Made by a program: the position numbers and the translations under genes | Shown: in pieces, positions 5,262-46,362 of the stretch | Position numbering within the stretch: position 1 is the first letter of the stretch | Layout: each line of letters opens with the position of its first letter | Notes under the pieces: model-generated | What the model was told of the DNA's origin: nothing | Seen by the model: only the letters and a program-made list of their open reading frames with translations | The model's database searches: none | Assembly: GCF_053078305.1 (NCBI RefSeq) | Contig: NZ_CP166879.1 | DNA: 64,000 nt | Strand: one strand, 5' to 3'

Positions 5262-6692
5262 TTATTTACTATTCGCTTTACGCGCCAGCAGCGGGAATAT
5301 CAGTCCTAATCCTACCAGCACAAACGGCGTTGCAACATTCAGCGCCAACTGGAAGGTCCACTCTGCAGTGAAGGCTTCCATTTTCGGGAAGATCCCCGTC
5401 AAACAGGCAAAGGCGGTAAAGGCAAAACACCAAATCCCGACGGTCATTGCCAGAGGCTTATTACGAATAAAGACATATTCTGGTTTATATTTCTGCGCCA
5501 GGCGAACGACTGCAATAAATGCAACAAATACCCATAAATAACGCAGCGGCATCACTACCGAGTTAAGATTCAACAGCCATTTATAGAGATTGTTCATATC
5601 ACCGATGCCGAGAGTCGGCAGCATAATCAGAATTGCCACCAGCACCAGGGTCAGAAAATAGCCATTAACGGGCGTACCAGAAGCGTTGGTACGACATAAA
5701 CTGGCTGGAATATATTTGCTGTCAGCATCACCTAATAGCACTTTAAGCGGGGCATCAATCGAGAATACCAGCGCAGCTACTTGTCCCAGGGTATTCGCAA
5801 TGGCGTAAATCACCATTAAAGTATTACCCATGTTGTAATACTCGCCCAGCTTCTGAAAAGCGTAATATTGACCGTTAGTCATTAAGTCATCCGGGATATT
5901 ACGCGAGTCAAACATCATCCCCATCGCCAGTGAGCCCAGAATGGCACAAACCGCAACCATCACCGCCAAGCATAGCATCCCTTTTGGAAATTCTTTTCCT
6001 GGGTTGCGCGTTTGATTAACGTAAGGAGAAATCTTCTCTGCTCCGCCAACCGCGAAAACCAGCATTGAAATAGTGGTAATGTAGGTAAAGTCGATATGAG
6101 GAATGAACGTTTCCCAGGTAATGTTTGTGGTCGCAATATGCACTTCAGTAATCGCAGGCGCGGTTACCGCCATCGCCACATACAGGAGCGACATAACAAA
6201 CATCGCAATCCCTGCCACAGAACCGACGATTTTCAGCGATTTCATACCGCGTGAAGCAACCCACATAAAGAAGATAAACAGCACCAGCGTTAACCCCTGT
6301 AACGCTACGACTGAATATTCTTTGATTAGCGAACCGTCGCCTTTCATCGCCCAACCGAGCGCAATCAGTATTGCCTGGGGTTTTTGTGCCAGATAGGGAA
6401 TATGCACCACCCAGTAGGTCCACGCGGCGAGGTAAGCCAGTCCGGGTCCCATCGTGTGTTTAATCCAAGTACTGACCCCGCCTTTCCCATCTTTGAAGGT
6501 CGAGCCTAACTGACCAACAATTAGCGCATAAGGTGTGAAATAGAGCGCAAAGATAAACACCCATGAAAAAACAACCACCAGCCCCTGGTTGGCATAGTTA
6601 TTAACAACGTTGCCAAAACCCCAGACAGTGATAAAAGACATCAGCGCAATGTTGTACCATCGCAGCTGTTTTTCCTGAACATTCCCAGCCAT
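5262..6692 (-). CDS. ycaM: Putative amino-acid/polyamine (APC-family) transporter
   Basis: Polytopic membrane protein; likely start MAGNVQEKQLRWYNIALMSF (476 aa); track ORF extends 64 codons upstream. Confidence 0.75.
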   Translation of the reverse strand: MAGNVQEKQLRWYNIALMSFITVWGFGNVVNNYANQGLVVVFSWVFIFALYFTPYALIVGQLGSTFKDGKGGVSTWIKHTMGPGLAYLAAWTYWVVHIPYLAQKPQAILIALGWAMKGDGSLIKEYSVVALQGLTLVLFIFFMWVASRGMKSLKIVGSVAGIAMFVMSLLYVAMAVTAPAITEVHIATTNITWETFIPHIDFTYITTISMLVFAVGGAEKISPYVNQTRNPGKEFPKGMLCLAVMVAVCAILGSLAMGMMFDSRNIPDDLMTNGQYYAFQKLGEYYNMGNTLMVIYAIANTLGQVAALVFSIDAPLKVLLGDADSKYIPASLCRTNASGTPVNGYFLTLVLVAILIMLPTLGIGDMNNLYKWLLNLNSVVMPLRYLWVFVAFIAVVRLAQKYKPEYVFIRNKPLAMTVGIWCFAFTAFACLTGIFPKMEAFTAEWTFQLALNVATPFVLVGLGLIFPLLARKANSK

Positions 6693-13263: not shown

Positions 13264-14256
13264 CTAATCGATGGACAGTTTATGGACACTTTCAGCCAGC
13301 GGATTAAAGCTGATTGCATCCTGTAAAAAGTCCGGCGAAAAATGCGCATACGTCATCGTTTGTTGAATCGTGGCATGGCCCAGGATTCGTTGTAGCGTAA
13401 CGATATTTCCGCCATTCATCATGAAATGTGTAGCGAATGTATGACGCATGACATGGGTGGCCTGCCCTTTCGGTAAGTCCGGCTTCACCTCCTGAAGGAT
13501 CTCCCGAAATCTGAGGTAATCAGCCTGGTACAACAATCCGGTTCTGCGGGTTTTAATTAACGCAAGTACCGCATCAGAAACGGGAACGGCGCGAGATTTT
13601 CCGTTCTTGGTGTTAAAGAACATCACGCGGTTACCTACAATATGTTCCCCACGTAAACCAGCTGCTTCACCCCACCTTGCCCCCGTGGAAAGACACAGAA
13701 TGGCAACACGCCGCGCATCTCCATCGAGTCGTTCAAGCAGTCGTTCAATCTCCTCATCTGAAAGAAAGGCCATCTCTGTGTTCCTGACTTTCAGCTTACG
13801 TATTCCCCGAACCGGGTTTTCGTTATGGAACACCTCACCCTCAATCAGCGAGCTGAACATTGCAGACAAGGCACACAAATCGCGGTTAATGCTGGAAGGC
13901 ATTAACCCGGCCTGTAATTTGTCGGACCGGTACCCGAGCATAAATTTTCGCGTCATCTGACTGGCACGAGGATCACCCATCTCACGGTTTATCTTTTCCA
14001 GTCTGACCCTGTAGGTATCCCCGTAATCCTGGTTACGACCATCAAGCAACCACCAGGCCTCTATCAGTTCGGATAACCGACGCTGATCTGCTGGCTTAGC
14101 CTGCCATGGCTTATCATGAAAATTCTGCAAAACATACCTTTCAAACTCCTGCGCCTTTGACTTCAGGGTAAAAATCTTACGAATCCGCTTTCCTTCCGTC
14201 CCTTGTGGCCTTACATCAACCTTATAACGTCCGTCTTTGAGTTGCTTAATCGACAT
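13264..14256 (-). CDS. int: Phage integrase, tyrosine recombinase (P2 Int-like)
   Basis: N-terminus MSIKQLKDGRYKVDVRPQGTEGKRIRK closely resembles P2 Int; C-terminal catalytic region HVMRHTFATHFMMNGGNIVTLQRILGH...TMTYAH; track ORF begins at an upstream TTG. Confidence 0.9.
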   Translation of the reverse strand: MSIKQLKDGRYKVDVRPQGTEGKRIRKIFTLKSKAQEFERYVLQNFHDKPWQAKPADQRRLSELIEAWWLLDGRNQDYGDTYRVRLEKINREMGDPRASQMTRKFMLGYRSDKLQAGLMPSSINRDLCALSAMFSSLIEGEVFHNENPVRGIRKLKVRNTEMAFLSDEEIERLLERLDGDARRVAILCLSTGARWGEAAGLRGEHIVGNRVMFFNTKNGKSRAVPVSDAVLALIKTRRTGLLYQADYLRFREILQEVKPDLPKGQATHVMRHTFATHFMMNGGNIVTLQRILGHATIQQTMTYAHFSPDFLQDAISFNPLAESVHKLSID

Positions 14257-14325
14257 GATTAGCCCCTCCAACGGATAAATTAACCAAACACTCCCTGCGG
14301 GATGAAACCCGCTCGATGTGTAACG

Positions 14326-42725: not shown

Positions 42726-44399
42726 ATGAACCCCACTAAACGTCTGTTACTGGGTAACGACACCATTCAGCTGGTCAGCTGTTCCGTCATGCTTGAGCTG
42801 AACGCGTGCGGACGCGGATTTATCACGGCCAGAACGGAGCAGAACTACACCGGGCGCCCTGTTCGTCTCGATATCGGATACGGAAACGACCTGGTGCGCT
42901 GGTTTACCGGATACGTTGAACGCAGCCAGCCCGCTGAAAACGGCTCGGTGCGGCTTCTGATTCGTGAAATGGCGGGGATCCTTGATCACCCCTTCCCCTG
43001 TTCATTTCAGCACCCGACAATGCGCACGGTCACACAGTGGCTGAGTGAGACCAGCGGGCTGGAAATCATCCTGCCGGACAACGCGGCTTACACTGACAGA
43101 CCCGTTCCGCATTTCACGCACAGCGGCACGGGCTACGAACTGCTGGCCAGTCTGGGGCGTATTTTCTCCGTACCGGACTACATCTGGCATCCGTTACCGG
43201 ACGGCGGCATTATGGCCGCTGCCGCCGCGCAGGGGATGTTTTCCGGTCGCCCCGTCACCATCCCGCACGAGTTCAGCCAGGCATCAACGGGCGGACACAG
43301 TATGACCCTCCCGATGATTCAGACGCTGCGACCGGGTGTGGAGGTGAACGGTCAGCGCCTGACGATGGTCATGCTGGAAGATGACAACATGACCATCACG
43401 TGGACACCACGCAATAAAGCCACCGGCGCCCCCCTCCAGAAGTCCCCTTTCCGTCGCCAGGCTGAAAAGGCCTTCCCTGAACTGGCATCAGGGCTTCACC
43501 TGCCCAAACTGGCACGTGTTGAGGCGCCGACCGAAGCCGTCAGCGCGGGCAATATTGCCGACCCGTTCAGACCCCGCTACGCGGTGAATCTCCAGCTGCT
43601 TGACGAGAACGGCAACCCGGCAGCGGATACGCCCGTTTATAACGCCGTTCCCCTCCCCGTTCCTATGGCGGGCAGTGAGTCCGGCATGTTCCAGTTCCCG
43701 CCCCCCGGAACCCTGGTGGAAGTGGGATTTGTGGAAGGCCGGGCGGATAAGCCCTTCATCCGCCAGATAATGGCAGAGGGCCACAATCTGCCCGACGTGA
43801 AGCCGGGCGAGCAGTTGCAGCAACAGCGCGACGGCGTATCGCAGCGCGTGACGGTCGCCGGAGACTGGGAGCGCCAGACAGACCAGCGGATACAGGAGAC
43901 ATCACGCGAGCGCGTGGTGAGCGCAGACGAGGAGACGCGGAGCCTGACCAGCCGGGAGACCACCATACAGGCAACCGACACAACCACCGTCCTGGGCGTA
44001 TCCACGCTTCAGGCTGGCGCAGTCACCCATATCACTGAAGAGAACTACAGCATCAGCACGGGCGGGCACATGATGGTGGTTGCCGGTACCTGTGAGCGCG
44101 ACGTGGAAGGCGACACACTGGACACCGTGGGCGGCAGCCTTACCGAAAAGATTAAGGGCGTCCGTCACAGTATTGCGCAGGCGCAGAAGCTGGTTGGCGA
44201 TACGGTGAAGCTGGGAAACGAGGGCATTAATGTACTGACCATGCTGACGGACCTTGCCGATGTGGTGGAAGAGCTGGCCGATATTACGGCATCACATACC
44301 CACCCCAAAACGGGCACGTCTCCGCAGGCCGCACAGTTCAGCCAGGTCGCTCAGGAGTGCCGCCAGCTTAAAAATAAATATTCACCAATAATCGAATAA
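42726..44399 (+). CDS. Putative baseplate hub / central spike protein
   Basis: 557 aa; C-terminal region with histidine motif ITASHTHP resembling iron-binding spike tips (P2 gpV-type); last gene before non-coding right arm. Confidence 0.35.
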   Translation: MNPTKRLLLGNDTIQLVSCSVMLELNACGRGFITARTEQNYTGRPVRLDIGYGNDLVRWFTGYVERSQPAENGSVRLLIREMAGILDHPFPCSFQHPTMRTVTQWLSETSGLEIILPDNAAYTDRPVPHFTHSGTGYELLASLGRIFSVPDYIWHPLPDGGIMAAAAAQGMFSGRPVTIPHEFSQASTGGHSMTLPMIQTLRPGVEVNGQRLTMVMLEDDNMTITWTPRNKATGAPLQKSPFRRQAEKAFPELASGLHLPKLARVEAPTEAVSAGNIADPFRPRYAVNLQLLDENGNPAADTPVYNAVPLPVPMAGSESGMFQFPPPGTLVEVGFVEGRADKPFIRQIMAEGHNLPDVKPGEQLQQQRDGVSQRVTVAGDWERQTDQRIQETSRERVVSADEETRSLTSRETTIQATDTTTVLGVSTLQAGAVTHITEENYSISTGGHMMVVAGTCERDVEGDTLDTVGGSLTEKIKGVRHSIAQAQKLVGDTVKLGNEGINVLTMLTDLADVVEELADITASHTHPKTGTSPQAAQFSQVAQECRQLKNKYSPIIE

Positions 44400-44459: not shown

Positions 44460-45100
44460 TCATCACCGGACATCACCCACCACGAAAAAACCGTCCGCAG
44501 CAGAAAAAAAGATGGACGAAACGCCCCACGTAATCCCCACGTAAAACGTCGCGTAACGCCACGTAACGAAGAGATAACCCCGCCAGCCCGATTCGATCCC
44601 CTGACATCAGAAAACGATTTCTGCGCCCCAAAATCGCCGCAAATGGCCGGAAATTTTCGGGGGCGACGTAACGCGTAAAGTGACGTAATCGGCGCTACCC
44701 CGCACACGCCTCCGGTATTTGTGTACGATAAATTTTGCAAATCGAAAGGGGTGCAAAACACCCCTCCAGGGCGCGCCATTACTGAGTTTTTCCCTTCTGA
44801 ATGGTTTTGCACTTTGTGCAAGGTTTTGCAAAAGTGTGCAAAAACTCCGGCTTTCTGAGGATCCCGAAAAATTTTAATGCACTGAATAACAAGAGATTTT
44901 TAAAATTACGTCACGATCGAAGATCTGAAAAAGGATCCGACGACGAAAACGAAAAAATCAGGAAAGCCAGAACTGGCGCGGTCTGGCGGGGAGTGGCAGC
45001 AAAAATCACTTTTGCACACTTTTGCACAACTGCTCCGAAAAAGGATGGCGAAGGGGAAGGAAAACAGCCACGTCATCCGTTGCACGTAACGGACGTAAAA
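44460..45100. repeat. Non-coding iteron array (ACGTAA-type and TTTTGCAC/GTGCAAAA-type short repeats)
   Basis: At least 10 copies of (c/g)acgtaa(c) at 44528-44690 and 45070-45100; direct/inverted ttttgca(c/a) copies at 44735-44850 and 45010-45030; no credible ORF. Confidence 0.6.
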
Positions 45101-45105
45101 GGTAA

Positions 45106-45463
45106 ATTACGCGCGGGTGCCTTTCGGCTGACGGCTGGAAGGAATACCTGAAGGCCGGATGTGAAAAGGCCCCGAGTCAACTAACGTTAACCCGAGGCCC
45201 TGACACTTCCTACCTGACAAGTGGAAGGTTAGCGCCTCCCTGTAAAAGGAGTCAAGCGCTATGCCGCAAAAAACGATCATAGTGAGCATTTTATGCATAA
45301 CTATTTTGATGATTGTCTGGATGATACACACGTCACCGTGTGAGTTCAGGCTTAACATCATGTGGTCACAATTTGCGGCGTTCTTGCAGTGTAAACAGTA
45401 AGAAACCGCAGCGGGGGTGAAAGCCCCCGCTATCCGGTTGCCGGGTTCGGTCGATATGGCACC
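45106..45463 (+). repeat. Copy 1 of ~360-bp duplicated module carrying a small hydrophobic-peptide gene (type I toxin-like locus)
   Basis: Near-identical to 45826..46186 (about 90% by eye); starts attacgcgcgggtgcctttcgg, ends at GC hairpin gcgggggtgaaagcccccgc. Confidence 0.7.
45261..45401 (+). CDS. 46-aa hydrophobic peptide, Hok/Gef-like candidate type I toxin (copy 1)
   Basis: MPQKTIIVSILCITILMIVWMIHTSPCEFRLNIMWSQFAAFLQCKQ; AGGAG RBS 8 nt upstream; single TM then Cys-containing tail, as in Hok family; highly structured leader. Confidence 0.45.
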   Translation: MPQKTIIVSILCITILMIVWMIHTSPCEFRLNIMWSQFAAFLQCKQ

Positions 45464-45516
45464 TTTTCTCCATTGGATTACAGACGTATTTGCCCGCGAC
45501 ATGCGGGCCTTTTTGT

Positions 45517-45720
45517 TCAGTTGTATTTATTGTGGTCGTTACTGGCAGTGGCATTAACTGATTTTGCATGAATAGCACAAATTTTTTCCACGATAACACC
45601 ACACGCTTCAAGGTCTTCCGGGCGTGAAACCTTTATTTTTGTAATAGTCTCAGGATTATCAGCCGTTCCACTTTGCACAACCTCAATTTCAATTTTTTTT
45701 CTTGAAAGAATCATTTTCAT
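45517..45720 (-). CDS. Hypothetical small protein (67 aa) between the two duplicated modules
   Basis: ATG-initiated ORF in AT-rich spacer; weak SD. Confidence 0.25.
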   Translation of the reverse strand: MKMILSRKKIEIEVVQSGTADNPETITKIKVSRPEDLEACGVIVEKICAIHAKSVNATASNDHNKYN

Positions 45721-45825
45721 CGCCCCGACACAGGACAGAGTAAGCCTGTGCGAAAGAATATCACCAGTGCGATAGCGTTGTCTGCTTCAACGCCAGGCAT
45801 TGCGCACACAAAGGGAAATCAGTAC

Positions 45826-46186
45826 ATTACACGCGGGTGCCTTTCGGCTGATGGCTGGAAGGATTACCTGAAGGCCGGATGTGGAAAGGCCCCGAGTCAA
45901 CTTTAATGTTAACCCGAGGCCCTGACCATCTACCCTAAGCAAGTGGAAGGTTAGCGCCTCCCTGTAAAAGGAGTCAAGCGCTATGCCGCAAAAAACGATC
46001 ATCGTGAGCATTTTATGCTTAACCATGTTGTTGACCGTCTGGATGATACACCGTTCTCCGTGTGAGTTCAGGCTTAACATCATGTGGTCAGAATTTGCGG
46101 CGTTCTTGCAGTGTAAACCGTAAGAAACCGCAGCGGGGGTGAAAGCCCCCGCTATCCGGTTGCCAAAGGTTCGGTCGAAAGTCGCA
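45826..46186 (+). repeat. Copy 2 of ~360-bp duplicated module (type I toxin-like locus)
   Basis: Direct repeat of 45106..45463 with scattered substitutions. Confidence 0.7.
45983..46123 (+). CDS. 46-aa hydrophobic peptide, Hok/Gef-like candidate type I toxin (copy 2)
   Basis: MPQKTIIVSILCLTMLLTVWMIHRSPCEFRLNIMWSEFAAFLQCKP; same RBS and frame as copy 1; differences are mostly conservative. Confidence 0.45.
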   Translation: MPQKTIIVSILCLTMLLTVWMIHRSPCEFRLNIMWSEFAAFLQCKP

Positions 46187-46206
46187 CCCTCACACAAAAG
46201 TCACAA

Positions 46207-46238
46207 AGAAAAACAAAGCCCGCAGCGTAAAAACTGCG
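46207..46238. terminator. Bidirectional rho-independent terminator (serS end / right-arm transcripts)
   Basis: Perfect hairpin aagcccgcag-cgtaaaaa-ctgcgggctt flanked by A-run and T-run. Confidence 0.65.
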
Positions 46239-46362
46239 GGCTTTTTTGTTTCAAAGATGGACGTTATCTGGACACATGAAAATAAAAAATCTTTATTTTC
46301 AATATGTTAACCACCCACTAAAACCACCCGCAGGCGCTTTTTAGATTCAGAAAAATTAGGTA

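Follow-up and report, generated by a model that had tools for sequence, protein, structure and literature searches.

A 67-codon frame between two hok modules at an E. coli prophage end, probably a truncated remnant of a longer prophage gene

The systems closest to the locus described here are the hok/sok loci and a phage protein family. Tandem hok islets, with 2-6 copies, have been attributed to local duplication (bioRxiv 10.1101/2025.08.07.668861), and hokW-sokW has been characterised (PMC8621323). The family is phrog_14142, which PHROGs v4 holds as a 128-position profile of unknown function. The exact 67-aa protein encoded by the open reading frame (ORF) studied here was likewise already present in NCBI, under the name "hypothetical protein". 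What is added here is the unification of its relatives as a single gene and the recognition that the copy in the window, i.e., the whole stretch of 64,000 nucleotides that was analysed (NCBI RefSeq assembly GCF_053078305.1, contig NZ_CP166879.1), is truncated.

The window is part of an E. coli chromosome, and the nearest complete genomes, which are 94-98% identical to it across 45000-46300, annotate serS, rarA, lolA and ftsK directly to the right of the hok modules and the ORF. To the left of the modules, between dmsA and serS, lies a P2/HP1-like prophage of ~33 kb, which encodes a tyrosine integrase, a P2 gpA-type replication protein, a gpP-type terminase, tail fibre and tail-fibre assembly proteins, an HP1_ORF34 baseplate protein and a 557-aa baseplate protein (phrog_2258). 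The hok modules and the ORF are the attR-proximal tip of this prophage, and this is what the right arm, left unexplained in the initial annotation, consists of. A Mu-like prophage, an idea prompted by Com and methyltransferase neighbours in a related locus (L008, below) and by the several insertion sites, was rejected for the window given the presence of the integrase, P2 gpA, the gpP-type terminase and HP1_ORF34. The features to which the text refers are the following.

13264-14271, minus strand: tyrosine integrase, a prophage gene.
45080..45491, plus strand: hokA module, with a putative promoter, a leader with a sok-like region and the Hok coding sequence (45261-45401).
45492..45518, plus strand: hokA intrinsic terminator, GCCCGCGACATGCGGGC then CTTTTTGTTC.
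45517..45720, minus strand: the flagged ORF (MKMILSRKK...NKYN, then stop), equivalent to residues 72-138 of the 138-aa gene of its relatives.
45517..45714, minus strand: 65-aa version read from the second ATG (Met3), with GGGG 8 nt upstream.
45693..45700: T8/A8 homopolymer within the ORF (codons 7-10), prone to frameshift.
45717..45800, minus strand: 27-codon out-of-frame piece (MPGVEADNAIALVIFFRTGLLCPVSGR, then stop), whose TGA overlaps the ATG of the ORF (ATGA).
45800..46250, plus strand: hokB module, with a putative promoter, a sok-like leader, the Hok coding sequence (45983-46123) and a terminator hairpin (46215-46244).

Some further observations concern the same end of the prophage. This right end (HP1_ORF34, the 557-aa phrog_2258 protein and the hok islet; 13264-46300 in the window, and loci L006, L007 and L009-L013) adjoins serS, ihfB or ytfP depending on the strain, which indicates several integration sites for the prophage lineage. 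The 557-aa protein (42726-44399, plus strand), whose gene directly precedes the hok islet, matches phrog_2258 over its full length and displays a weak local likeness to the VgrG tip domain (TIGR01646, E = 0.0013). In the region of the tail-fibre-assembly gene, 41219-41417 (plus strand) gives a sub-threshold Rfam match to IS009 that spans the full model length, with 40 bits against a gathering score of 117. A 116-aa ATG ORF (44801-45151, plus strand) runs into the hokA promoter and leader; relatives annotate it as a hypothetical protein, it has no Pfam, NCBIfam or PHROG match, and it may be another doubtful gene call.

The two modules that flank the ORF contain direct repeats of ~360 bp (modA, ~45105-45465, and modB, ~45827-46190), with 88% identity per alignment column. 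Both code for a 46-aa Hok/Gef peptide that matches PF01848 (HOK_GEF), at E = 6.4e-5 and 1.9e-6, and each contains a sub-threshold Rfam match to sok (RF01794; 45115-45272 and 45835-45994). The peptide and RNA matches therefore place the modules, described at the outset as toxin-like, among the hok/sok-type type I toxin-antitoxin modules. Their putative promoters, read by eye, comprise -35 TTGCAC (45080-45085) and -10 TAAATT (45103-45108) for hokA, and -35 TTGCGC (45800-45805) and -10 TACATT (45823-45828) for hokB, the latter being homologous to the hokA promoter region. The hokB module sits where relatives carry the 5' half and the start region of a 138-aa gene. Between the modules, the covariance model found no Rfam sok match in 45480-45830, and the ORF gave no PF01848 match in the HMM search, in which both flanking 46-aa peptides do match.

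The stop codon of the ORF is located at the end of the T-tract of the hokA terminator. The hairpin of this terminator is not a canonical terminator for the ORF itself because, on the minus strand, it is followed by AAAUACG. Wherever the small gene is present, it is flanked by two related GC-rich hairpins (GCCCGC...GCGGGC; 45492-45508 and 46215-46244 in the window, 5853-5885 and 6247-6275 in L008, ~3465-3495 in L007); one of them is the hok terminator, and the other lies just beyond the 5' end of the gene and is degenerate in the 138-aa arrangement. This layout suggests that the small gene may reside in a hairpin-bounded cassette.

The flagged frame itself was correctly read in the initial annotation: it occupies 45517-45720 on the minus strand, between the two repeats, starts with ATG and encodes 67 aa before a TGA stop. 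Its translation product, MKMILSRKKIEIEVVQSGTADNPETITKIKVSRPEDLEACGVIVEKICAIHAKSVNATASNDHNKYN, is hydrophilic (GRAVY -0.34). The description of the spacer as AT-rich also holds, with a GC content of 36.8% in the ORF and 43.4% in the 357-nt spacer, versus 51-52% in the hok modules and 56% in the prophage to the left. The length of the ORF is by itself not significant against chance, as 795 of 5000 Markov-shuffled spacers (16%) contain an ATG frame of at least 67 codons, so that its status as coding-derived sequence rests on homology.

This homology points to a longer gene. At the end of the JNEC-KY202 prophage, a single hok module and its terminator are followed by a 138-aa ORF on the opposite strand (WP_231209984.1), which has a GGAGAG ribosome-binding site ahead of its ATG and whose last 65 aa are 97-99% identical to the window ORF, in the same frame. 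The 138-aa frame is intact in five of six loci (JNEC-KY202 and four of the five draft loci), the sixth, L010, carrying a 1-nt deletion. The cluster of proteins sharing 90% identity that contains the window protein has 101 members, all the named ones from E. coli, and its members are 138, 73, 67 or 65 aa long; ~1000 draft contigs encode proteins of this cluster. The 73-aa entries ("MLVLEALKM...") reflect other start calls within the 138-aa frame; of the five loci inspected, four keep it whole and L010 has it frameshifted. The protein of 138 aa (pI 5.6, GRAVY 0.04) is soluble and is not a Hok-like membrane peptide.

Both forms match phrog_14142: the 67-aa ORF alone aligns with positions 74-122 of 128 (E = 1.4e-6, 29.3 bits), and the 138-aa allele aligns collinearly, residues 23-124 with positions 25-122 (E = 4.2e-7). 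The window ORF does not cover the profile in full, its match being limited to the C-terminal ~38%. The collinear alignments therefore indicate that the family is ~130 aa long and that the window ORF is only its C-terminal part. The initial annotation had offered two readings, a cargo gene or a spurious frame. The second fails in view of the phrog_14142 match and the conserved protein homology, and the first is right as to origin, the ORF being cargo-derived, but not as to completeness, as it holds the C-terminal 65 codons of a protein of ~138 aa. Conservation, one of the matters named there, was found by homology search in the phrog_14142 match, in the nearly identical 138-aa alleles and in a homologue 39% identical to the ORF.

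This last homologue, P0003, emerged when 1.84 billion representative proteins were searched exhaustively with HMMER; the search gave the E. coli cluster and one more true relative, 59 aa long; another candidate, P0002, was rejected as a spurious HEAT-repeat match. P0003 is encoded at a rare and different E. coli prophage end (GCA_946062945.1, locus L008), with a Com-like zinc finger and a DNA methyltransferase as neighbours. The L008 frame is open upstream of the P0003 Met, giving 87 aa from a GTG, and the 20 residues that precede the Met align with the 138-aa protein (ALLVLSFLRTGASLILEVIK vs ASLIVSLLRANSVLVLEALK), lifting the pairwise score from 48.5 to 67 bits. Aligned with the 138-aa form from residue 54 onward, the L008 homologue reaches E = 9e-21, versus 5e-15 for the C-terminal part alone. 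As side observations, the neighbours in L008 (4787-5729) are a Mu Com-like zinc-finger gene and, after it, a gene for an N6/N4 DNA methyltransferase; ~900 complete E. coli genomes have the Com-side stretch too, and L017, the one of them that was inspected, has a hok module at the place of the small gene.

The comparison of L008 with the 138-aa allele also informs on selection. Overall pN is 0.35 and pS 0.76, the latter saturated, and pN/pS is 0.36/0.81 upstream of Met74 (20 codons) and 0.35/0.74 downstream of it (54 codons). Because pS is saturated and pN is constrained on both sides of the Met, purifying selection must in the past have acted on a protein that reached upstream of the start of the ORF. 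Judged by this pattern of substitutions, the longer protein is the selected unit, with clear past constraint. As for its function, neither the ORF nor the parent gene has Pfam, NCBIfam, PADLOC or PDB sequence matches, the PADLOC-DB defence HMMs gave no match at E ≤ 5 to either the 138-aa or the 87-aa protein, and fold searches returned generic resemblances only.

The window copy follows the KY202 allele closely, at 97-99% identity, from the Met3 codon to the stop; directly upstream the identity falls to ~65%. The 27-codon out-of-frame piece found there is probably what is left, in diverged form, of the codons ahead of Met74 in the intact alleles. Support for this assignment is moderate and comes from alignments (MAFFT, and Smith-Waterman with shuffle tests): the local alignment with the KY202 gene is collinear at the DNA level (shuffle p = 0.005), the protein alignment with the N-terminus of L008 (AIALVIFFRTG/ALLVLSFLRTG) has p = 0.01, the protein alignment with KY202 has p = 0.22, and BLASTP of the 27-aa piece gave no alignment. 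Between the conserved Arg-Thr-Gly (RTG) codons and the Met, the window has 29 nt instead of 27. Codons 1 to ~46 of the 138-aa gene, its ribosome-binding site and any promoter are absent, because the hokB promoter and leader are located there. All 8 window-type copies share this truncated structure, and the 65-codon frame is intact in seven of them; in L003 (JNEC-KY174), A7 replaces A8 in the homopolymer, and the ORF is broken and unannotated. Variation within the cluster amounts to 6 sites across 198 nt, 3 synonymous and 3 non-synonymous, too few to give more than a weak lean toward constraint, far from significant.

The ORF opens with ATG AAA ATG and, if it is translated at all, Met3 would be a more plausible start than Met1. 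In the alignments, the counterparts of Met3 are Met74 in the 138-aa form and Met1 in P0003. PGAP calls a 65-aa protein in L001 and L006, in the former because the first ATG is out of frame there. A consensus scan for sigma-70 promoters found none upstream on either strand; the same scan also misses the hok promoters.

The spacer DNA is rare: of 5426 complete E. coli genomes only 6 have it, and beyond these it turned up once each in a 1-Mb replicon that bears a plasmid label, a viral contig and a metagenome contig. The window-type cassette is found in two prophage backbones, in one beside HP1_ORF34-like baseplate genes and in the other beside P2 ogr. The large replicon (L004; CP061233.1, "plasmid pSTEC639_1", 1,005,770 bp) contains a gamma-glutamylcyclotransferase gene of the ytfP kind and bears its hok-ORF-hok cassette beside ogr in a P2-like prophage; it appears to be a piece of chromosome submitted under a plasmid label. 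A word-indexed protein search gave no candidates for the 67-aa ORF and returned only their own clusters for the 138-aa and 87-aa forms, and tblastn against 50,697 phage genomes gave no real matches and no phrog_14142 member. The sole match of a plasmid tblastn was the mislabelled 1-Mb E. coli replicon. Degenerate-pattern scans found nothing in 100,044 species genomes, one window-type copy among viral contigs, and one window-type copy plus two chance matches in JGI metagenomes.

The hok islet itself is variable. In L015, the same prophage at the same serS site carries hokA and hokB in direct tandem without the ORF, with ~30 nt from the terminator to the next promoter, a junction type present in 10 complete genomes; the same ORF-less tandem occurs in L016, in a P2-like prophage at a tRNA-Lys cluster. 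The shared flank of the tandem hok-hok and the ORF-bearing forms reaches ~45783, and the comparison gives no direction of change. The islets comprise one module (KY202-type), two (the window) or three (2013C-3033, JNEC-KY174 and Bongo), and the hokB-hokC junction of the three-module loci (L002, 3261-4599; L003; L005) is of the short, ORF-less type (compare 45261-46123 in the window).

The window copy is thus homologous to a longer protein that was under purifying selection in the past, and it is truncated and has lost the native start region. With a probability of about 0.7, the explanation is that the ORF represents the surviving 3' portion of a ~138-aa phrog_14142 prophage accessory ("moron") gene, of which it would be a young, truncated remnant. 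In the simpler arrangement, the ~138-aa gene would face just one hokW-like module, in convergent orientation, at the attR end of the P2/HP1-like prophage. A rearrangement of the hok islet would then have put hokB, a second hok module, in place of codons 1 to ~46, their ribosome-binding site and all the sequence ahead of it. Of the ~27 codons that follow, a diverged, out-of-frame piece would have been left, split from the ORF by a frameshift, and the last 65 codons would have remained open, happening to start with ATG AAA ATG. The fragment most likely no longer makes the native protein, is not needed, and is intact only through the recency of the rearrangement, which would have left too little time for decay. 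There are signs in the compared loci that the segment may be dispensable, namely the frameshift in L003, the loss of frame of the first ATG in L001 and the ORF-less tandem loci at the same site. The rarity of the spacer among complete E. coli genomes also speaks for a remnant.

One alternative is that the C-terminal 65 aa form a functional small protein translated from the internal Met (45714), the parent gene having a long and a short isoform and the window keeping the short one. Expression could then proceed by termination-reinitiation at the ATGA overlap with the 27-codon piece, which could couple translation, or by read-through from the hokB antisense (Sok) promoter. A Shine-Dalgarno (SD)-like motif precedes the Met by exactly 8 nt in three diverged lineages, GGAGG in KY202, GAGGTGATC in L008 and a weak GGGG in the window, but the conserved Leu-Glu-Ala/Val codons (CTG GAG GCG / CTT GAG GTG) at this position can account for it. 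The Met is also kept in the 39%-identical homologue, and gene callers independently pick it (the 59-aa P0003 and the 65-aa PGAP calls), yet the constraint upstream of the Met equals that downstream of it. A single-sequence AlphaFold model of the short protein is a simple beta-hairpin plus helix (pLDDT 70), whereas in the 138-aa model, which is of low confidence (pLDDT 60), the C-terminal strands are predicted to pack with N-terminal beta-alpha units so that both halves form one alpha/beta sandwich. The seven intact frames among the eight truncated copies say little, because all these copies are nearly identical. The occurrence of the cassette in two different prophage backbones favours a short protein as well, and against it stand the frameshifted copy, the tandem hok loci that lack the segment and the want of an evident promoter. 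On balance, a short functional protein seems unlikely. A more specific version, in which the 65-aa module would be a nested short phrog_14142 isoform that acts with the hok modules (e.g., by modulating hok/sok or prophage release) and is expressed by read-through from the hokB Sok promoter, is a good deal more speculative and must be called improbable; if true, it would be the first protein accessory to a type I toxin-antitoxin locus.

Two other explanations dispense with a protein in the window altogether. The segment may be kept for an RNA or DNA role, by spacing or insulating the hokB promoter from the hokA terminator, or as the template of a convergent antisense transcript into the 3' end of the hokA mRNA. 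It always accompanies a hok module, the ORF stop abuts the hokA terminator, and a minus-strand transcript would enter the hokA 3' region because the hairpin is a poor terminator on that strand. However, tandem hok-hok loci function as annotated pairs with the short junction of ~30 nt, the segment has no Rfam match or conserved structure, and the conservation of the distant allele follows a protein pattern, so that such a role is very improbable. That the ORF is merely a chance open frame in AT-rich, non-coding spacer is scarcely credible: the frequency of such frames in shuffled spacers and the lack of Pfam, NCBIfam, PADLOC and PDB matches would suit it, but it is refuted by the PHROG match, the near identity to the C-terminus of the 138-aa protein and the constrained distant homologue.

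On the preferred reading, that of a truncated remnant, the RefSeq "hypothetical proteins" of 65, 67, 73 and 138 aa are one gene in differing truncation states or with different start calls. Furthermore, the number of modules in hok islets at prophage ends rises and falls between one and three, and such islets can cut into cargo genes beside them. The ORF is then an ordinary by-product of hok-islet rearrangement, which matters little by itself and corrects the reading of an ORF that had been left unexplained.

The comparison with the known systems can be stated as follows. The window ORF matches the C-terminal part of phrog_14142, and the codons upstream of it are out of frame or missing. With the 138-aa prophage protein (WP_231209984.1; P0004, P0009 and P0012) it shares the frame, the prophage and the position convergent to hokA and its terminator; unlike that form, the window copy lacks codons 1 to ~46 and the GGAGAG, has a second hok module in place of the 5' part, and retains the next ~27 codons out of frame, at ~65% DNA identity. 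Like the 87-aa ORF of L008 (P0003), to which it is 39-43% identical, the window ORF has the QSGT(A/P)DNP(E/K)T motif, a Met and an SD-like motif at matching positions and comparable GC-rich hairpins to either side, whereas the L008 frame continues upstream and has a Com-like zinc finger and a DNA methyltransferase next to it instead of a second hok. As for the hok/sok loci, the modules of the window have at most 88% DNA identity to Stx-phage loci annotated as "MokW-like host killing", and the flagged ORF is neither a Hok toxin nor a Sok RNA, being instead a passenger between two members of the islet.
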